From Patescibacteria group bacterium (GTDB lineage: Bacteria; Patescibacteriota; Microgenomatia; UBA10105; UBA927), in contig DATKGN010000004.1 of the NCBI GenBank assembly GCA_035510735.1, positions 307,810 through 371,809 of the forward strand: a DNA stretch of 64,000 bases, read 5' to 3'. A program made the translations under genes and the position numbers. Numbering within the stretch: position 1 is the stretch's first letter; every line of letters begins with the position of its first letter. Positions 6,153 to 21,975 of the stretch are shown piece after piece. The notes beneath the pieces were generated by a model, which was not told the origin of the DNA, made no database searches, and saw only the letters and a list, made by a program, of their open reading frames with translations.

Positions 6153-7271
6153 TTATTGAATAAACAGCGGCAGTGTTACACCAACTAATGAAAATATCAC
6201 ACCCGTGATGAGTAATATTACGGTCGTTTCAAAGTTTCCTGTTGCGGGTATTGCGCTGCCTGTTGAGACTTCCGGTGCTGAGTCGCCTGATGCGACAACG
6301 AAAGGTGTCGTCGCCGTTTGCGTCTGGCCGGTGGTGGGATCGGTGGCCATTGCTTCAACGGTATGTGATCCCGGATCAAGCGGTGTTGTCGGAGTGTAGA
6401 CCCAATTACCATTAGCGTCGACTGTGACGACAGCCGTCTGAGGATCCGAGTGGATGATAATCGTGATTGTCGAGCCAGGAGCCCCTTTCCCGCTTATGAC
6501 GGGTGTTCCAGTATTAACACTCTCATTGGGCGTTATCGATGTAATGGTTACGGCTGACGTGCTGGCGTTAGTCGTTGGAGCTATAGTGTCAGTGGGTTCG
6601 AGGGTCGGAGTAGGAGTCGTGGTAACTCCGGTGAGATTGGCAGAAGATGTAGCTTGGAATGTGGCCGAGGAGCTTGCGGCCTGATTGGCAGAGAGGGAAG
6701 TCGTGGTTGTATCAGTCGACTGAGTTCCGTCAGCATTAAGAATGGTGATATTTGCGGGGATCGTACCGGTAAGTACGTTTGTTCCGCTCTCCTGAAGTGC
6801 GCTTGCGTACGTGTCGGGATCAGGAGCGAACCGGACGGAAACGGGTGTCGCTGATCCCGCAAGGGCTTTCATATGAATGGTTGCGACCGTGCCGACGCCG
6901 ACGATAGGTTTGGTCGTGCTTTCTGCTCCTACTTTGATAGTGGCTTTGCCGATCGGATCAACAGTTCCGGAAATTAATATACTCGGTGTCAGTGGGCCAT
7001 TTTTTGGAGGCGATGCTTGCAGTTTTGTTGGGTCAAACAGAAGGACTATCTGAATAGCGACGACTTGGTTTGTTCCTGTATCAATTTTTACGTCGAGATC
7101 AAACCCGTTATCATCTCCTGCTTTTGTGGTTACGACAGATGGGCTCAGGGATAGTGTTGTTGCCGGCGCAGCACGTTTACGGACTTCCTGATTTTGACTG
7201 ACAAGCAGGATGGTGGCCGGGATTGCGAGTAATATAATTCCAATAGAAATATACAGGAACACTTTTTTCAT
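6153..7271 (-). CDS. Secreted/surface protein with cohesin-like domain, Thr/Ser-rich linker, Ig-like domain and C-terminal IPATG + hydrophobic anchor
   Basis: Signal/TM at N-terminus. VAIQIVLLFDPTKLQA cohesin-like segment. Long T/S-rich low-complexity region. C-terminal IPATGNFETT followed by a ~20-aa hydrophobic tail (LPXTG-like sorting signal, but lacking a basic tail). Confidence 0.5.
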   Translation of the reverse strand: MKKVFLYISIGIILLAIPATILLVSQNQEVRKRAAPATTLSLSPSVVTTKAGDDNGFDLDVKIDTGTNQVVAIQIVLLFDPTKLQASPPKNGPLTPSILISGTVDPIGKATIKVGAESTTKPIVGVGTVATIHMKALAGSATPVSVRFAPDPDTYASALQESGTNVLTGTIPANITILNADGTQSTDTTTTSLSANQAASSSATFQATSSANLTGVTTTPTPTLEPTDTIAPTTNASTSAVTITSITPNESVNTGTPVISGKGAPGSTITIIIHSDPQTAVVTVDANGNWVYTPTTPLDPGSHTVEAMATDPTTGQTQTATTPFVVASGDSAPEVSTGSAIPATGNFETTVILLITGVIFSLVGVTLPLFIQ

Positions 7272-7387
7272 CCGTGAGTCTTATTATGGATGAGTTTTGC
7301 CTCAATCGCAAGAGATATATACATATATTTTTACGTCTTTATGATAAAATGTGGTTTATATGATTCATACAGTCTAAATTACAATTT

Positions 7388-8770
7388 ATGACAGATATTG
7401 AACGATCAGAGGTTGTCGGCCCTTATAGCGATTTACAGACGCGCAATTTGGTTCTGCAGATAAAAAGTACGGATCCGATTGATGAGGATCAGGGGTATCA
7501 GTGGGAAGAAGTACAGCATCCGGGCAGGGTGGAAAATGATTTAGTCGAGAGAGAGGGGAGGTCGGTAGAGAAAAAAGGGGCGGCTGTTCCATATACCGCT
7601 GAGTATTTTACCGCGATTGCGGATGAAAAAGAACGTATGAGGGCGTATCGGGGTCTTGTGGTCGTCTCTATCGTTCCAGATGGAGAAGATACGGAAATTG
7701 AAACCGATCCGTTCAAATTTCTTTACGCTCCTCGTGATGCGAGTTTTGCCCAAGTACGTGACGCGTATATCAGACTCTCTAAAGCATGGTTTCCTGATTT
7801 GATGTATCCGGAGAATAAAGAACAATTTAATAGAATTTTTGGCTTCGATGAGTTTCCGATAAAGGAAAACGACCCCCAGAAATGGTTTAATGAAATGCAA
7901 TCTATTCTTCCGCCGGATACTCTTACTACCGAGGATTTCGAGAGTTTACGTTCCGATGAACAAGAAACGTATCAAAAGGCTCATGAGGCGCATGAGAAGA
8001 AAAAGAGTGAATACGAAGACGTAAAAGCAGAAATGAGACGCCGGGCAACCGAGAAGATGACAATCATCAATAAAGCTTTTGAGGCAGCAAAAAAGAGATT
8101 TTCGAAAGAAGAAATAGAATCGTTTGCCGGGTTTAACTGGAAAAAAGAAGCGCTTTATGGGCCGGCAAGAGGCGTTTTCGAACAGGTCGTATTACCTCTA
8201 GAGGGAAATGGTCAGCTAATAAAAAAAATTAATGAAGCTTATCAAGATGATCAAATATATCTTGAATTTGATTATGGTCATGCACTTCTTGAAAGAAGTC
8301 AGAAGGATTATAGACAACGTTTACCGCTTCGTGCCTTTTTTGCCTGGACAGAACTAAGAAGAGGGGTAGGGCTTTGCCCAACACTTCTTGACGACCTTGT
8401 TAAAACATATTCCTTTGAAGATGACCGGGCTGAACAGTTACGAATCATGATTATTAATCATGAAGCACCCGAGTTTATTGTAACGGCGCTGAACATTACG
8501 GATGAAGATTCCGGCGAACTATTGGGCTTTTTGGATGAAGTATATGAAGGCCCGATGTACTATCACATGTTGGCCATTCATTCAGACGAATTTTATCCAT
8601 TGGGAGTTGAGTTTACGTCCGATGGGCGGTTAATTCTTAAATATAAGGCGCAAAGCATACAAGGTGGTGGGTCTTCAAAGGGGACTTGGCAGGAAACACA
8701 ATTTAGTCAAACGGACGTACAAATCATGCAAGCTGTAGCATATGGTCCTTTGTTGCAAGAACCTCACTGA
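7388..8770 (+). CDS. Hypothetical acidic protein with a degenerate J-like segment (HPD replaced by FPD)
   Basis: 460 aa. RDASFAQVRDAYIRLSKAWFPDLMYPENKEQFNRIF aligns to the J-domain helix II-loop-helix III consensus with HPD changed to FPD. Sits immediately upstream of hrcA-grpE-dnaK. Confidence 0.55.
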   Translation: MTDIERSEVVGPYSDLQTRNLVLQIKSTDPIDEDQGYQWEEVQHPGRVENDLVEREGRSVEKKGAAVPYTAEYFTAIADEKERMRAYRGLVVVSIVPDGEDTEIETDPFKFLYAPRDASFAQVRDAYIRLSKAWFPDLMYPENKEQFNRIFGFDEFPIKENDPQKWFNEMQSILPPDTLTTEDFESLRSDEQETYQKAHEAHEKKKSEYEDVKAEMRRRATEKMTIINKAFEAAKKRFSKEEIESFAGFNWKKEALYGPARGVFEQVVLPLEGNGQLIKKINEAYQDDQIYLEFDYGHALLERSQKDYRQRLPLRAFFAWTELRRGVGLCPTLLDDLVKTYSFEDDRAEQLRIMIINHEAPEFIVTALNITDEDSGELLGFLDEVYEGPMYYHMLAIHSDEFYPLGVEFTSDGRLILKYKAQSIQGGGSSKGTWQETQFSQTDVQIMQAVAYGPLLQEPH

Positions 8771-8799
8771 TATCTCCACAAAACCTCAAAAATATGGTC

Positions 8800-8828
8800 T
8801 TGACATAAATTAGCACTCGATGTATAGT
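8800..8828 (+). promoter_or_regulatory. Sigma-70-type promoter of the hrcA operon (TTGACA-N17-TATAGT)
   Basis: TTGACA at 8800-8805, 17-nt spacer, TATAGT at 8823-8828. Overlaps the CIRCE-like element. Confidence 0.6.
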
Positions 8829-8836
8829 ATTGCTAA
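8810..8836 (+). promoter_or_regulatory. CIRCE-like HrcA operator with a degenerate right arm
   Basis: TTAGCACTC-N9-TATTGCTAA versus consensus TTAGCACTC-N9-GAGTGCTAA. The left arm is perfect; the right arm matches only TGCTAA. Confidence 0.6.
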
Positions 8837-8853
8837 ATCGTTTAAAATATCGT

Positions 8854-9588
8854 ATGGATCAACTGAAAGATTTAACTCCGCGCCAGATTCAAATCCTCAA
8901 GGCAATTATTGAGGAATATATCGCAACCGCCGAACCGGTCGGCTCTGAAACGCTGGATAAAAAATATAACTTAGGCGTGTCGCCGGCCACAATCAGAAAC
9001 GAGATGGTGCGGTTGACCGATATGAAACTCCTCAACCAGCCGCATACGTCAGCGGGTCGAAGTCCGACGCCCGCTGCTATGCAATATTACGTTTCCCAAC
9101 TCATGAAGACACATGATTTATCGGTCACTGATGAGGTGGCGGTCAAGGAGAAAATGTGGGATTACCGGCAGGAAGTTGATAAATTACTCCGGGAAGCTAC
9201 TAAAACGCTCGCAGAGAAGACGAAGACCTTGGCGATTACGGCGACGGCAGACGGGGATTTATATTACGCAGGCGCGGCAAATGTGCTTGATATGCCGGAG
9301 TTTTATGACTATGAATTAACACACGAATTATTTGAAACGCTCGACCGGTTTGATTTTTGGTGGGCGATTTTGAAACAGCATGACGTTGTATCTGATATTG
9401 TCCTAGGGAATGATATGGGTGAGCGCGGGTTATTGTCGCAGTGCGGGTTTATCTATACGAAATTTAATTCGCAGCATGTGTCAGGGGCAATCGGTGTCGT
9501 CGGGCCATCCAGGCTAAATTATCAGATTATTGTGCCGGTAGTCACCTACATGGGTGGTCTCATCGGAGAATTTGCAAGCAGTTGGTAA
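8854..9588 (+). CDS. hrcA: Heat-inducible transcription repressor HrcA (short form)
   Basis: N-terminal winged-helix LTPRQIQILKAIIEEYIATAEPVGSETL and ATIRNEM motifs. ATG at 8854 chosen over the upstream TTG because of the promoter position. Confidence 0.85.
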   Translation: MDQLKDLTPRQIQILKAIIEEYIATAEPVGSETLDKKYNLGVSPATIRNEMVRLTDMKLLNQPHTSAGRSPTPAAMQYYVSQLMKTHDLSVTDEVAVKEKMWDYRQEVDKLLREATKTLAEKTKTLAITATADGDLYYAGAANVLDMPEFYDYELTHELFETLDRFDFWWAILKQHDVVSDIVLGNDMGERGLLSQCGFIYTKFNSQHVSGAIGVVGPSRLNYQIIVPVVTYMGGLIGEFASSW

Positions 9589-9637: not shown

Positions 9638-10135
9638 ATGAAGAAACCTGACGAAAAAAAAGTTACTAGTGTGCCGGTAAAACAACTCGATGAGCAGGTG
9701 CAGGAACTTGAACGCGTAAAGTTAGAGCGCGATGATTGGAAGGGAAAGTGCATGCGGGCGCTTGCCGATTATCAAAATCTTGAGCGCCGCGACAGGGAGG
9801 AGAAAGATGAGGTCCGGGTCTATGCGGCGGAGATAATTTTAGGGAGACTGTTGCCGTTTGTCGACACAATCTCACGGGTGGCAAAGCACATTGACGATAT
9901 GGGTCTACGGCTTGCACTTAAAGAACTGGGAGCTATATTACAGGAACAGGGAGTAACACAGATGAATGTAGTTGGAAAATCATTTAATCCGCACGAGATG
10001 GAATGTATAGAGGTCGTTGACGGGGAAGATAATAAGGTGGCAGGAGAGTTATTGCCGGGTTATCTTTTCCGGGGCAAGGTTCTGAGAATTGCGCAGGTAA
10101 AGGTCGGAAAAAAGAATAATCCAAAGAACGCATAA
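9638..10135 (+). CDS. grpE: Nucleotide exchange factor GrpE
   Basis: 165 aa with an N-terminal coiled coil and a C-terminal GrpE beta-domain (LPFVDTISR, LKELGAILQEQGV, FNPHEMECIEVV). Confidence 0.85.
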   Translation: MKKPDEKKVTSVPVKQLDEQVQELERVKLERDDWKGKCMRALADYQNLERRDREEKDEVRVYAAEIILGRLLPFVDTISRVAKHIDDMGLRLALKELGAILQEQGVTQMNVVGKSFNPHEMECIEVVDGEDNKVAGELLPGYLFRGKVLRIAQVKVGKKNNPKNA

Positions 10136-12163: not shown

Positions 12164-12194
12164 TAAGAGATTGGTAAATCAAGTTCGTTATTTT

Positions 12195-12218
12195 AAGCCC
12201 AGACGTTCGTCTGGGCTT
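12195..12218 (+). terminator. Hairpin downstream of dnaK (AAGCCCAGACG-TTCG-TCTGGGCTT); weak T-tract
   Basis: Near-perfect 9-10 bp palindrome 30 nt after the dnaK stop. Only a partial U-run follows, so it may be a processing or attenuator structure rather than a full terminator. Confidence 0.4.
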
Positions 12219-12234
12219 TGGCAATATTACAACT

Positions 12235-13152
12235 ATGAATGAAGTTCGTGTAGCAGAAGTTCCAGCTGCAGAAAGACATCTTGATATGCCGATTGAGGTG
12301 TATTTAATGAATGCTGCGACGAACGACGAACGAATAGTTATGGAAAATACATTCGCCTTCTGGCAGCCATTTAAGAATCCTTACACGGATGAGATAAAGG
12401 ATTCAGGATCAACAGTAGGATTGGAGAGTAGGGCCGGAGGTATGTGCGTGCATCTAATGGATGGGTATTTCGTTACCCCGAAACACGTGAGTGACGCGTA
12501 TTCTTTATCGGATGACTCTGAAGTAGAATTCAGAGATAGGATTCCAGATGTGATTTTTGATATTTATGGAACCAAACGGAATATCCAACCAGATTTAATA
12601 TTTTCTAATCCTCGATATGCATTGAGAACATTCGATGATTTCGTGATTTTTAGGGTTGATCCTATTAAATATCCGTGGATACAACAATTACCACGATACC
12701 CTATTATTTCGAATCACAAAGTTGCTGTGGGTCGTTCAATTTGCGTGGGAGTACCTGATCTTATATTTCCGTTGGGGTTTGATGAGAAAGGTGATCCATT
12801 AGTTGTTGATAACGTGGGACGTCAACTGACGGTTCGTTTGAAGGAAAACGACGTACCAATTTGGAAAAGAAAAGTTTCTATTGAAGAAGCACGTCTCCAT
12901 GCTCGAGCAGGAGAGGAGTATCCCTCTTGGTTTTTTGGTGTGCCAATGACAAGAGAAGCAAAAGGATATACAAAAGGACCCTTCATTAATAATGAGATGT
13001 TTATTAGTAAAGGATATAGCGGGGGACCTTTAATTCATAATGGTGTATTGCTTGGGATGGTTGTCGAACCTGATGTTGAATTTGGGAGCGGTGGGGGAGG
13101 ATATGCGGTTGATATTAAATTAGTGTTTAAGACGTTGCGCGGATTGATGTAG
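12235..13152 (+). CDS. Cytoplasmic trypsin-like (S1/chymotrypsin-fold) serine protease-like protein inserted between dnaK and dnaJ
   Basis: GYSGGPLIHNGVLLGMVV matches the GDSGGP catalytic-serine motif. TPKHV is His-box-like. DDFVIFRVD could supply the Asp. No signal peptide. Confidence 0.5.
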   Translation: MNEVRVAEVPAAERHLDMPIEVYLMNAATNDERIVMENTFAFWQPFKNPYTDEIKDSGSTVGLESRAGGMCVHLMDGYFVTPKHVSDAYSLSDDSEVEFRDRIPDVIFDIYGTKRNIQPDLIFSNPRYALRTFDDFVIFRVDPIKYPWIQQLPRYPIISNHKVAVGRSICVGVPDLIFPLGFDEKGDPLVVDNVGRQLTVRLKENDVPIWKRKVSIEEARLHARAGEEYPSWFFGVPMTREAKGYTKGPFINNEMFISKGYSGGPLIHNGVLLGMVVEPDVEFGSGGGGYAVDIKLVFKTLRGLM

Positions 13153-13166
13153 TATATTAATGTATT

Positions 13167-14112: not shown

Positions 14113-14925
14113 ATGACTTCTGAAGATTTATTAGTAGAGGCACTTCCCCTTTATAGAATTTTACAATCTACAGAAATAGCTGAGCGGTACTTAACGCCAA
14201 CATTTGCAACACTGCATGAAATGGCGAATGAGGCCTCTTTTCGGAATCGGGAGTATGGATGCCAAGTCAGTAGGATTAGACCACCACAAGAGGATACTTC
14301 ATTCCTTTCGACGTATACTATCGGTGATACCCGTACTGTTTTTGAACCTGAACGTAAGCCTGAATCTGTTGACGGCGTGTTTTTTCATACCCATTTCCGA
14401 CATAATCCTAGTTTGATTGATTCCTTAAAAGGTAAAAAAATGAGATCTTGGTATATGTTACCGAGTGATCTTGGTGTGCCGAGATCAATGAAAGCTCTCG
14501 AAATTTCCTGTGATATGTATGCACAAAAAGGATCAAAACAATTAGGCGGGTATTTTAATATTGTCACACCATTTCACTGGGCACTGCATATTTGGCAGGA
14601 GCATCAGAGTGGAATTTCAGTACCGGATTCGCAGTGGGAAATTGTTGAGGGTACGCAAAAAGGCAGGATATTTACCTGGCAGGAATTACTCAGGGATACG
14701 AAGTCTAAACCGGATAATGTGATGGTTTGGAAGCATAATTGGCCCGGAGGGGTGCAAAATTATTTTTTAGTTAGAAGTTTTTTGTTAGCAGATCAACTGG
14801 AGAGAGAAATCGGATCAGTTAAGGGACTATGTTATGGTGATGGAGTAGTTGTCCTTATGGATCGATTGGGGCTTCAGCATATTCCACACGCACGAAACTT
14901 AAGTGAAATTACAAAACTGTCCTGA
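14113..14925 (+). CDS. Hypothetical protein (inserted cassette gene downstream of dnaJ)
   Basis: 270-aa ORF with no recognisable family. Flanked by the native dnaJ 3' end and a duplicated dnaJ 3'-end fragment. Confidence 0.6.
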   Translation: MTSEDLLVEALPLYRILQSTEIAERYLTPTFATLHEMANEASFRNREYGCQVSRIRPPQEDTSFLSTYTIGDTRTVFEPERKPESVDGVFFHTHFRHNPSLIDSLKGKKMRSWYMLPSDLGVPRSMKALEISCDMYAQKGSKQLGGYFNIVTPFHWALHIWQEHQSGISVPDSQWEIVEGTQKGRIFTWQELLRDTKSKPDNVMVWKHNWPGGVQNYFLVRSFLLADQLEREIGSVKGLCYGDGVVVLMDRLGLQHIPHARNLSEITKLS

Positions 14926-14934
14926 CGGCATTAA

Positions 14935-15012
14935 ATTGTCAAAAGCCAGCTTCAAATTCCGACACACCTCAATCACAGGCAAAAAGAATTACTTGAAGAA
15001 TTAGAGGTCTAA
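14935..15012 (+). repeat. Duplicated dnaJ 3'-end fragment ([25 protein letters not shown]-stop), a diverged copy of 14011-14093
   Basis: In-frame peptide nearly identical to the DnaJ C-terminus ([27 protein letters not shown]). The nucleotide differences are mostly synonymous, and an in-frame stop lies immediately upstream. Confidence 0.8.
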
Positions 15013-15999
15013 AACCCTGCCAATTCCAAGCTCGATGAGGGAGAGTGAATTAAGAAGAGTAGAAACGAATGTCGGATCATAAGAATTGAACGACGGGTCT
15101 GCATAGTATTTACGGCTTAATGCGTATACCTCTTCGATATTTACCACTGATTGCATCAATGAAGTATCAATTGTGCTATATCGGTGTTGGGCTAGTTCGC
15201 GATAGTACCGAAATTGTTGAGATACCCAATCGACGAGTATTTTCCTTTGTTCTTCAAAAGTTGCATGTACATGGTCTACAAAACTGCTCTGGTATTTTTG
15301 TTGTGCTTCAGATTCCCAATGACCCATTTCCCTTATCATGTCTCGTTCTTCTTGCCTGAAAACATCATTTAGTAGATTCGAGACCATAAAACTATAGTTC
15401 GGGTTATCAAGATAGCGGATGAGTTTGTTCGTGCTAATACCATGAAAAGTGAATGGAGCCACGGTGATATCATGTGTTGCGAATATCGGGACGGTATAGT
15501 GAATATGGGGAATAGGGCGTTGTTCCTCTGCTAACTGCATCAGGCGCATGGCTACAATTCCCGACGTAAAAAACTTATCACGACCTTCATCAATTGGAAA
15601 CGTATATTTGAGTGCAAATTCTTTTTTACCGTCGTTAGTGATTAAAAATATTGTGTACACTTTGCTTTCCATCCCTCCCAATGTATTGTTCCCCTGAATA
15701 ACGTGTCCGTCGTATATTTGAGAGAGTATTCCTGGATTGTTGGCTAAGAGATGTACGCCTTCCGGTGAAGCGATAAACGTAGCAGGAACCAAACCTGCAA
15801 GTGTTTGTTCATTGTGTTCTAACGAGGCGATTACAGTGTTTCCCATGAAATCATGAGAAACCATAACGCCGGGTAGTTCGGTGGGTTGCAGCCTGGTATC
15901 CAGGTATCGCTGTATAGCGTCTAGTGGTGGTTTATCAAATCTGGTTATATATTTAAGGCGTTCTGGCGGTCTATCCATAGATGGCGGCGATTGTATCAA
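15001..15999 (-). CDS. Hypothetical protein
   Basis: 332-aa ORF with no recognisable family. Its stop codon lies inside the duplicated dnaJ fragment. Confidence 0.55.
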   Translation of the reverse strand: MIQSPPSMDRPPERLKYITRFDKPPLDAIQRYLDTRLQPTELPGVMVSHDFMGNTVIASLEHNEQTLAGLVPATFIASPEGVHLLANNPGILSQIYDGHVIQGNNTLGGMESKVYTIFLITNDGKKEFALKYTFPIDEGRDKFFTSGIVAMRLMQLAEEQRPIPHIHYTVPIFATHDITVAPFTFHGISTNKLIRYLDNPNYSFMVSNLLNDVFRQEERDMIREMGHWESEAQQKYQSSFVDHVHATFEEQRKILVDWVSQQFRYYRELAQHRYSTIDTSLMQSVVNIEEVYALSRKYYADPSFNSYDPTFVSTLLNSLSLIELGIGRVLDL

Positions 16000-16209
16000 A
16001 CTGTGTATTATTTATCCATAATTTTGCATCGGGGATTGCAAACCAATGGGCAGAGTGACGCATACGAAATTCCCTTCGGGCATATTAAGTTGATTATCCC
16101 CAATATCGAAAAGGCAAGAGATGTACTATTGGGAGGGGAATTTAAAGAAGTAGCAGATAAACTAACGGTACTGTCTAAATTAGTTGAAGATGATATCGTT
16201 TCTAACGAT

Positions 16210-16324
16210 GGAGCGTTGGCAGAGCGGTAATGTCGGAGTTCTCGAGACTCTAGGAGGCTAAAATACATCATAATTAAGTGTGTTAGTAAGTGTTTCGTAG
16301 GTTCAAATCCTACACCCTCCGCCA
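16210..16324 (+). tRNA. tRNA-like gene (type II/Ser-like features) with a ~45-nt AT-rich insert between the anticodon arm and T arm; 3' CCA encoded
   Basis: Acceptor GGAGCGT/ACCCTCC (one mismatch). 3-bp D stem with GAGCGGTAA loop. Anticodon stem GGAGT/ACTCT with 7-nt loop TCTCGAG. Canonical T arm GTAGG-TTCAAAT-CCTAC. Discriminator G then CCA. Total 115 nt, too long for any standard tRNA. Confidence 0.45.
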
Positions 16325-16478
16325 GGACGGACAAAATATAAAACGAGTTATCTGGCAATCCAGAGCATACGAAAAACACATTCGAACTAAAGAATATGTT
16401 TAGCTTGAGAGGAGGCGGGATTTGAATCTAACTATTTATGATGTCAGAAGAAATATTATTTCTCGATTTAATTAAGGG

Positions 16479-17360
16479 TCAATAATTGGTAAACCCAACT
16501 TTTGGATTTTGACACATATCGAAATTAGAAAAGCTTGCTACTCCAATTCCAGAACCACTACCGGTAGCAGTAAGCCGTAAATTACTCAACGCACTTTGGA
16601 TGTTTGTAAATTCGGAAACAAGATGATAATCCACCTCATTGTGCAATTTGTATGAAAGTTTCACATCAGTGCCAATTTTCAGAATTTTGAATCTTAAAGG
16701 AACATTTGTTGGAGTTTTGATATTGGAAATCCCAGTATCGTTTGATTTTCCATTCGAAATATTATAAGCTCTTACTCCACCTAAGTTGTCTCTAAGCAAT
16801 ACAACCCCATTTTTCAGATCTTTATCCCTTAGTACAATTGTTCCAATCATTTGATCGGAAGAACTGTCTGTTTCTACGGGTAATACGTCAATCTCAATTG
16901 ATATGTTTTCAGTATTTAAATTCGTCATCTCTACTGCACGACCACGCCAACTTTTCTGTAAACCCACTTTTTCAATCAACTGTGAATTTGATACATTAAA
17001 ATTGTCGCGGGAATCTAAACTAGTCGGACTTGCTACGATATTCCAATTCTGTGAATTAAGTGTAATACCGGGGAAAGTGTCCTGTAATTCAGTCGAACAA
17101 GGTGCAATCACCGGACTACTTATTGGCGATGGAACGACAGGAGTTGGTGTTGGTTGAACTAAGGAGATTTGTTGTTTCAGTTGCATATTTTGATACGCAA
17201 AGAATCCCGCAGCTCCGAGAACAAGGAGCAGAATAATAATTATACATACCATTAATAGCGGGTTATTTGATTTTACAGGCATTGGCGTAACCGGTTGTAT
17301 TGGAAATGGCTGTGAAGGAGTCGGAGGTATCGGCGTTTGAGGAGGAATAATAGGTTCCAT
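16479..17360 (-). CDS. Proline-rich membrane-anchored protein with extracellular domain (hypothetical)
   Basis: N-terminal P-rich repeats (PIPPTPSQPFPIQPVTP), one TM helix and a ~200-aa exported domain. Confidence 0.55.
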   Translation of the reverse strand: MEPIIPPQTPIPPTPSQPFPIQPVTPMPVKSNNPLLMVCIIIILLLVLGAAGFFAYQNMQLKQQISLVQPTPTPVVPSPISSPVIAPCSTELQDTFPGITLNSQNWNIVASPTSLDSRDNFNVSNSQLIEKVGLQKSWRGRAVEMTNLNTENISIEIDVLPVETDSSSDQMIGTIVLRDKDLKNGVVLLRDNLGGVRAYNISNGKSNDTGISNIKTPTNVPLRFKILKIGTDVKLSYKLHNEVDYHLVSEFTNIQSALSNLRLTATGSGSGIGVASFSNFDMCQNPKVGFTNY

Positions 17361-17547
17361 AAATTTATCATAGCATGATTAAATTTATTAAACGATAAGA
17401 TTTACGCTACAATTCAATTGTCCTTGAGGTAAGATAGTGGTTTTGAAATAGGTTATAACACTGTAAATAGTTCTCCGCACAAATTTTTTTGTTCACCCGT
17501 ATATCTGTGATATTATATGTGTGTTTACTAACACACTTAACATAACA

Positions 17548-17568
17548 AGCCCTTTCGTGGGGCTTTTT
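17548..17568 (+). terminator. Rho-independent terminator-like hairpin (AGCCC-TTTCGTG-GGGCT + TTTT)
   Basis: 5-bp GC-rich stem plus U-tract, downstream of a possible weak promoter (TTGTTC ... TATTAT) at ~17490-17515. Confidence 0.45.
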
Positions 17569-17587
17569 ATGTGGCCGGCCGAGGAGA

Positions 17588-17616
17588 TTGACGGGTGATG
17601 TGTAAGTGAGTATAAT
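17588..17616 (+). promoter_or_regulatory. Consensus sigma-70 promoter TTGACG-N17-TATAAT
   Basis: TTGACG 17588-17593, 17-nt spacer, TATAAT 17611-17616. Transcript would start ~17623, i.e. ~140 nt upstream of the nusA ATG. Confidence 0.65.
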
Positions 17617-21485: not shown

Positions 21486-21537
21486 TTTCTTGACAGAACG
21501 CATTCGCTTATGGGCCTAATGGCTTTAAGAGGAAACT

Positions 21538-21975
21538 ATGACTAATGCAGATAACGCAGCTTCGATAAGGGACGATTTAGAATTAAGGAAACAAGATACT
21601 GTTAATAAAGCAGCTATATTGATTTCAGGTTGGGTTCGTCAGATATATCCGCCAGACCATCAGGGTCCAATAAGTTCACATTTGGCTGAATTATATATGA
21701 TAACGAGGCCTAAAGGAGCAATACAGATTGATGCAAAAAAAGTTGTTGATGAATTTGTGGATCATCCGAGTTCTTTCCTTTCAGAGGCGCGTGCTGCAGG
21801 ATTAACAGAACAGGAGGGTTTTATTGGTGGTTTAGATCAATTACAATCCCTATTTTCATCACTAGTGCCGCCGAGGTTTGCAACAGAAGCCCCTATAAAA
21901 AATATGTATGAGGACGCAGCCATAACACTTAAAGGAGCACTCGCTGTGTTACGTAAGCCAAACGCAACTTCTTAG
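21538..21975 (+). CDS. Hypothetical protein
   Basis: 145-aa ORF between the DHH protein and rpsO. No recognisable family. Confidence 0.45.
   Translation: MTNADNAASIRDDLELRKQDTVNKAAILISGWVRQIYPPDHQGPISSHLAELYMITRPKGAIQIDAKKVVDEFVDHPSSFLSEARAAGLTEQEGFIGGLDQLQSLFSSLVPPRFATEAPIKNMYEDAAITLKGALAVLRKPNATS

Follow-up and report, generated by a model that had tools for sequence, protein, structure and literature searches.

What is a gene with the motifs of a trypsin-like serine protease doing between dnaK and dnaJ? The question is raised by a 64,000-nucleotide stretch of DNA from a Patescibacteria metagenome-assembled genome (MAG), hereafter 'the window', in which an open reading frame (ORF) that we call gene X (12235–13152, forward strand; ATG start, 305 amino acids (aa)) is slotted into a cluster of heat-shock genes, 71 bp from the stop codon of dnaK and 14 bp from the start of dnaJ. 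The order on this strand is hrcA-grpE-dnaK-X-dnaJ, with a CIRCE-like repeat (controlling inverted repeat of chaperone expression) upstream; hrcA, grpE, dnaK and dnaJ are each identified by Pfam, and the NCBI entry for X reads 'hypothetical protein' (Patescibacteria MAG). An earlier note on this DNA had singled out the ORF for its TPKHV and GYSGGP motifs, which do indeed lie at residues 81–85 and 260–265, between dnaK and dnaJ as described. In short, our answer is that X represents a very small, new offshoot of an already known fold, at an operon position not reported before; it is an accessory gene, optional in the heat-shock operon rather than a core member of it.

Relatives of X are few. Searched exhaustively with phmmer, 1.84 billion cluster representatives yielded only four full-length sequences, at 29–43% identity, plus two frameshifted fragments (P0002 and P0004) of the window's own strain; a word-indexed protein search retrieved, even at E ≤ 10, only X itself and P0007, and neither phage GenBank nor IMG/VR held a relative. 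The five members are roughly equidistant from each other (29–40% pairwise identity) and make up a family of solo genes that is tiny (five sequence clusters found) and evolves fast. Scanning metagenomes added only one contig of the same strain (L095) and two further loci, L096 and L097, which match to the same degree as the P0003-type gene and presumably belong to that genome. Both frameshifted fragments come from L095 (Ga0182028_1399178), a metagenome contig in which numerous frameshifts break up dnaK, X and dnaJ and which is probably an error-rich assembly. The DNA of the X locus is 100% identical in five independent samples/assemblies, with the reading frame intact.

In an alignment of the five family members (A1), the residues predicted to form the catalytic centre are invariant: His84, Asp135 and Ser262 in the numbering of X, along with G260, G263, G264 and P265. 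His84 lies in the context T-x-[KWR]-H-[VC] and Asp135 in [DE]-D-[FW]-[VIL]-[IVL]-F-[RK]; the triad follows the order His, Asp, Ser, with spacings in X of 51 and 127 residues, the latter falling to ~103 in members that lack an insertion found in X (see below). P19, E21, A28, E32, T39 and F40 are likewise invariant in an N-terminal extension specific to the family (Table 1). When the A1 profile was searched against the PDB it matched 128 sequences at E ≤ 10 (E from 9.8e-5), and the best 60 of these 128 are, all but one, PA-clan proteases (HtrA1, DegS, DegP, AlgW, SplA, streptogrisin B), the alignments setting the His and Ser boxes of the family on TNNHV and GNSGGP; X as a single sequence yielded noise only. 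Pfam Trypsin_2 (PF13365) is matched by all five members over the triad region, with P0006 alone exceeding the curated threshold (28.3 versus 27.6 bits, across the whole model) and the other homologues scoring 16–22 bits. For X alone there are sub-threshold but mutually consistent hints, from an NCBIfam DegP model over the serine box and a PHROG 'protease' family over residues 43–88, just before the His box; the UniRef name for a longer form of P0003 is 'Serine protease'. As the triad is invariant in five members and the family profile finds PA-clan proteases, the motifs go beyond chance. A chance ORF was rejected as an explanation on the strength of the conserved homologues and the fold evidence.

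AlphaFold gave no usable model for X from its single sequence (predicted local distance difference test, pLDDT, 28). With A1 as input, AlphaFold2 (AF2) produced one with a predicted template modelling score (pTM) of 0.66 and a mean pLDDT of 57.6, in which two clusters of beta-barrel strands are followed by a C-terminal helix and the N-terminal extension is modelled as strand, two helices and strand, preceding the first barrel. Its best 50 Foldseek matches in the PDB are chymotrypsin-fold proteases only, led by DegS (E 3.4e-7; target-normalised template modelling score ~0.65), with further matches to Deg2, FAM111A, kallikreins, Spl proteases and TEV protease; a viral structure library gave the same generic chymotrypsin-fold picture. 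Profile and model together support a chymotrypsin/trypsin (PA-clan, Trypsin_2-type) fold for X with the triad in His-Asp-Ser order, in keeping with the trypsin fold that had been read from its motifs.

The product appears to stay in the cytoplasm. No 19-residue span of X reaches 1.6 on the Kyte–Doolittle scale, the maximum within its first 40 residues being 0.31; the corresponding maxima across the five members are 0.24–0.89, and no member has a hydrophobic N-terminus. Hydropathy, the one criterion applied here, agrees with the earlier claim that X has no signal peptide, and fits a soluble, cytoplasmic protein with neither signal peptide nor membrane helix.

Would such a protein be active? The earlier note had considered this doubtful, as Tyr replaces the Asp of the classical GDSGGP motif—an objection that we do not uphold. 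That Asp (chymotrypsin Asp194) forms the zymogen-activation salt bridge with the new N-terminus in S1A enzymes and takes no part in catalysis itself; in HtrA chains, moreover, the serine box reads GNSGG in the PDB profile alignments, and the Tyr is therefore no sign of inactivity. The residue before Ser is always Tyr or Phe in the X family, with both the Ser and the Gly two residues before it, predicted to belong to the oxyanion hole, invariant. Since the His84-Asp135-Ser262 triad is complete and the glycine of the oxyanion hole intact, X is most likely catalytically active. Peculiar to its gene is an imperfect direct repeat (Table 1) that places a degenerate copy of the serine motif 16 residues ahead of the intact GYSGGP, accounting for 16 of the ~24 extra residues that precede the serine box in X; this stretch ahead of the box is the least confident part of the AF2 model.

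Three of the five family members occupy the dnaK-dnaJ slot: X in the window, the gene at the P0003 locus of Candidatus Gottesmanbacteria (GCA_001003565.1 and related assemblies), and P0006, in the context hrcA-grpE-dnaK-X-dnaJ-nusA-infB. They are mutually 31–40% identical, and the gap to dnaJ, 14 bp in the window, is 10 bp for P0003 and 2 bp for P0006. A scan with the DnaJ of the window, keeping one genome per species, provided 80 related loci for comparison (labelled Gottesmanbacteria, Woesebacteria, Levybacteria, Shapirobacteria and other Patescibacteria, some records being labelled otherwise); in none of these did hmmsearch with the A1 profile (E ≤ 10) turn up any family member less than 6 kb from dnaJ. 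The statement of the earlier note that X lies outside the canonical operon is borne out; besides the window, only the P0003 and P0006 genomes carry the gene at this position. Even the nearest relative, L015, lacks the gene: its HrcA, DnaK and DnaJ are 96%, 96% and 93% identical to those of the window, its DNA is collinear with that of the window at 84–88% identity, and it has dnaK, a 138-bp spacer and dnaJ. In a neighbour-joining tree of DnaK+DnaJ each carrier of X is sister to X-less genomes, such that ~3 gains or ~11 losses are needed. No recombination mosaic was found in the 3′ end of dnaK or the 5′ end of dnaJ, where the window is closest to L015 up to the junctions, and no transposon-like flanking repeats were found around X.

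In Microgenomates-type Patescibacteria, the space between dnaK and dnaJ acts as a hotspot for inserted genes. The gap is enlarged in 19 of the 80 relatives, and ORFs of at least 60 codons within it, their identities read by eye from the sequences, make up a mixed cargo: PHP-like proteins; a small membrane protein, in some cases accompanied by a 117–136-aa protein; a 146–154-aa protein; GIY-YIG-type, four-helix-bundle and GrpB-like proteins; and a glycosyltransferase with a membrane protein (cargo-bearing gaps: L023, L025, L032, L043, L044, L061, L064, L068, L072, L073, L075, L078, L079, L081, L083, L088, L090 and L093). A GC-rich hairpin of the type GGGCGCGC-GAAA-GCGCGCCC stands 3′ of dnaK in many relatives, whether or not X is present, and X is always downstream of the post-dnaK hairpin. 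Several X-less relatives have a TGnTATAAT-like box after the hairpin, ~10 nt before the dnaJ ATG, and the window has TATATT at the corresponding place, now behind X (motif reading only). The interval between dnaK and X showed no consensus promoter, and Rfam had no match across the window and three related loci. At L015:3975–4108, L018:5852–5990 and L033:1916–2048 the usual short spacer hairpin is replaced by a long-hairpin element of ~125 nt, for which 29 pairs are predicted, five of them with compensatory changes, and which has no Rfam match at the gathering threshold; since these three carriers are not each other's closest relatives, the element may be either mobile or a regulatory RNA.

As a whole, the cluster has the appearance of a class I heat-shock operon under HrcA control. 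The CIRCE-like repeat, of a quality for which 0.05 matches are expected by chance (two mismatches), is the presumed operator for HrcA, and the true start of hrcA is probably the ATG at 8854, just past it. A strong Shine-Dalgarno sequence precedes dnaK only, none being recognisable at hrcA, grpE, X or dnaJ. DnaJ has a J domain, a Gly/Phe-rich stretch and a C-terminal domain, with no Pfam match for the zinc-finger (CxxCxGxG) domain.

Table 1. Features of the heat-shock cluster and of gene X, in window coordinates
Feature	Position	Strand	Basis and remarks
Promoter-like site TTGACA-17-TATAGT	8800–8828	+	Motif; overlaps CIRCE-like repeat
CIRCE-like inverted repeat	8810–8836	+	2 mismatches to TTAGCACTC-N9-GAGTGCTAA
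hrcA	8830–9588	+	Pfam HrcA, E 5e-16
grpE	9638–10135	+	Pfam GrpE, E 6.5e-27
dnaK, 640 aa	10241–12163	+	Pfam; strong Shine-Dalgarno AAGGAGG
GC-rich hairpin after dnaK, 10–11 bp, AAGCCCAGACG / CGTCTGGGCTT	12195–12218	+	Folding z −3.15; no clean U-tract
Gene X, predicted divergent PA-clan (Trypsin_2-type) serine protease, 305 aa	12235–13152	+	Family alignment, profile, fold model
Conserved, family-specific N-terminal extension, ~residues 16–43, D-M-P-I-E-V-Y-L ... N-T-F	12280–12363	+	Alignment, model
His box TPKHV, residues 81–85, predicted catalytic His84	12475–12489	+	Aligns with TNNHV of HtrA chains
Predicted catalytic Asp135, in DDFVIFRV	12637–12639	+	Invariant; Pfam Trypsin_2 match of X begins here
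NVGxQxTVR motif, residues 193–201	12811–12837	+	Alignment; invariant, family-specific
Imperfect 34-nt direct repeat, spacing 48 nt	12961–12994 and 13009–13042	+	Encodes KGYTKGPFINN then KGYSGGPLIHN
Serine box GYSGGP, residues 260–265, predicted Ser262 and oxyanion-hole Gly260	13012–13029	+	Aligns with GNSGGP of HtrA chains
TATATT, −10-like box	13153–13158	+	Abuts stop codon of X, 8 nt before dnaJ ATG; motif reading only
dnaJ, 308 aa	13167–14093	+	Pfam: J domain and DnaJ C-terminal domain

Taking these observations together, we think it rather likely that X is an accessory, probably active, cytoplasmic serine endopeptidase whose expression is tied to the heat-shock operon by its position. Its gene occupies the variable stretch that separates the conserved hairpin after dnaK from dnaJ and, judging by that position, is most likely transcribed with the HrcA/CIRCE operon, through read-through of the hairpin or from a weak promoter after it; if so co-transcribed, its level would rise with those of DnaK and DnaJ under proteotoxic stress. 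By analogy, its most plausible job would be to cut unfolded or exposed polypeptides of the cytoplasm without ATP—the logic of HtrA, moved to the cytoplasm and shorn of a PDZ domain. Several points pull the other way. The post-dnaK hairpin might act as a terminator and keep expression of X low; the 16-residue duplication could disturb substrate-binding loops in X; X alone scores just 13 bits against Trypsin_2 (E 0.18), far below the curated threshold; the confidence of the AF2 model is moderate, with residues 210–260, before the serine, at pLDDT <50; and the two remaining family members lie elsewhere, one between a miaB-like gene and miaA and one after a NUDIX gene, so that the function needs no DnaK/DnaJ neighbours. 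The low Pfam score and the duplication would also be expected of an inactive pseudo-protease or a decaying gene, catalysis having been lost either family-wide (Tyr for Asp) or in X by the duplication: the ~24-residue insertion is unique to X, includes the degenerate GYTKGP copy, abuts the serine box and falls in a region modelled at pLDDT <35. We nevertheless regard this as very improbable, for the triad and the G-x-S-G-G-P core are invariant among members only 29–40% identical, a pattern that points to selection on catalysis, five samples show one and the same unbroken reading frame, and an Asp at the disputed position is dispensable outside zymogen-activated S1A enzymes, as the GNSGG of HtrA illustrates.

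A closer tie to the chaperones was the proposal of the earlier note, which saw in the gene a chaperone-coupled degradation or substrate-delivery function; X would then be a dedicated protease that cooperates, physically or functionally, with DnaK and DnaJ by degrading or processing their clients and is retained in the operon for that reason. What stands of this is that three divergent genomes keep the gene in the same slot, 2–14 bp before dnaJ, and it is only this recurrence that points to a link with DnaK/DnaJ; also in keeping with the proposal are the best structure and sequence matches, to a heat-shock protease family, HtrA/DegS, and the presumed CIRCE operator. The coupling itself we consider unlikely, given that X is absent from 80 related operons, one of them (L015) with DnaK and DnaJ 96% and 93% identical to those of the window, that two members are found in the miaB-miaA and NUDIX contexts, that the slot is a general insertion site with unrelated cargo, and that Pfam and the alignment revealed no interaction domain beyond the protease core and the short N-terminal extension. 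We think it similarly improbable that X and its two in-slot orthologues represent an undescribed, PDZ-less, HtrA-like cytoplasmic heat-shock protease that serves some genome-reduced Patescibacteria as an ATP-independent degradation arm of DnaK/DnaJ, coupled via the N-terminal extension or NVGxQxTVR. Conversely, X might have nothing to do with proteostasis and be a hitchhiking or conflict gene, mobile or selfish (for example a toxin-like or defence effector protease), that settles in permissive sites of well-expressed housekeeping operons. Such a gene would be distributed sporadically, as X is, ~3 gains being more parsimonious than ~11 losses; X and its homologues are always on the same strand and tightly packed within housekeeping operons; and their GC content at third codon positions (GC3) is far below that of the flanking genes in all five host genomes (0.18–0.33 in the X homologues versus 0.35–0.63 in both neighbours). 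X itself has a GC content of 0.408 and a GC3 of 0.327, against a window mean GC3 of 0.458 (standard deviation 0.073), and so groups with several other AT-rich, lineage-specific ORFan inserts that the window has and L015 lacks, as well as with a shared 270-aa ORF at 14113–14925. Homologues of X also resemble the protease domains of the defence systems RT-Protease_XI and LmuA (E 7e-9 to 2e-5), a similarity no stronger, however, than that to Trypsin_2 in general. With no partner gene, mobility gene or flanking repeats at X, no PADLOC match for X or its neighbours, no relatives in phage GenBank or IMG/VR and no recombination tract in the flanking dnaK and dnaJ, this origin is conceivable but on balance doubtful. 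We return to an accessory endopeptidase that would share the expression of its host operon as the reading we prefer; the mixed cargo of the dnaK-dnaJ spacer is in any case a caution against inferring function from operon position alone.

Other genes near the operon also differ between the window and L015. Across the collinear DNA (84–90% identity) the window has four extra segments, at 7320–8788, 12164–13165, 15000–17603 and 21486–21969, each of them holding ORFan genes of low GC3 (0.27–0.40 versus a window mean of 0.46). The first includes a 460-aa ORF (7388–8770, forward strand) directly upstream of the CIRCE/hrcA promoter, whose residues 106–151 are J-domain-like (Pfam DnaJ, E 2.7e-4; PDB J-domains, E 0.002), the HPD motif reading FPD; the whole gene (7320–8788) is missing from L015, making it a second lineage-specific, chaperone-themed insert adjoining the operon. 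The shared 270-aa ORFan begins 19 bp past dnaJ on the forward strand, is 80% identical to its copy in L015, has a GC3 of 0.332 and has no match in Pfam, NCBIfam, PHROGs, PADLOC or the PDB; a JAB/MPN-type metalloprotease, suggested by its H-T-H-F-R-H-N-P-S-L-I-D stretch, was dropped for want of support from Pfam, NCBIfam or the PDB. The reverse strand encodes, at 6153–7271, a 372-aa protein rich in Thr, Ser and Pro; its N-terminus includes a hydrophobic segment and its C-terminus carries IPATG and then a hydrophobic tail, resembling a sortase-type cell-surface sorting signal.

Amongst known systems, X most resembles HtrA/DegP/DegS (MEROPS S1C), its best matches by both profile and structure. 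It shares with them the Trypsin_2-type double beta-barrel, the T-x-x-H-V and G-x-S-G-G-P boxes and the lack of any need for zymogen activation, and would also share, by analogy and from its operon position, an ATP-independent mechanism and a tie to heat/protein-folding stress. Unlike HtrA, X has no PDZ domain (there is no Pfam PDZ match in any member, and X ends 43 residues past Ser262) and, by hydropathy, no signal peptide or membrane anchor; in its family the residue before the serine is Tyr/Phe rather than Asn, the N-terminal extension and NVGxQxTVR are further differences, and X is ~15–17% identical to HtrA-type structures in structural alignments. The label 'HtrA family member' was rejected for lack of a PDZ domain and an export signal; with respect to PF13365 the X family is better described as an outlying branch with conserved additions of its own. 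The known trypsin-fold quality-control proteases of bacteria (the HtrA family) act outside the cytoplasm; inside it, quality control is normally the task of ATP-dependent machines such as Lon, Clp and FtsH. If active and stress-induced, X would offer genome-reduced symbiotic bacteria an unusual, cheap route to proteolysis; the practical value of the finding is modest, given the extreme rarity of the family and the optional nature of its members.

PADLOC RT-Protease_XI and the protease-type LmuA of Lamassu are, likewise, cytoplasmic PA-clan protease domains: P0003 and P0006 match the RT-Protease_XI models and P0005, P0006 and P0007 the LmuA model, in each case over the protease segments of the models only. 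Unlike in those defence systems, X is a solo gene, with neither a reverse-transcriptase domain nor an LmuB-type partner. Searching the literature, we came across no protease gene described between dnaK and dnaJ. The closest parallel to the operon itself is with the extended dnaK operons of Gram-positive bacteria (e.g. hrcA-grpE-dnaK-dnaJ of B. subtilis), in which non-chaperone extra genes follow dnaJ; none of these is known to be a protease. HrcA/CIRCE control, presumed here, and the carriage of non-chaperone passenger genes are common to both, the difference being that in the window the passenger rides between dnaK and dnaJ.

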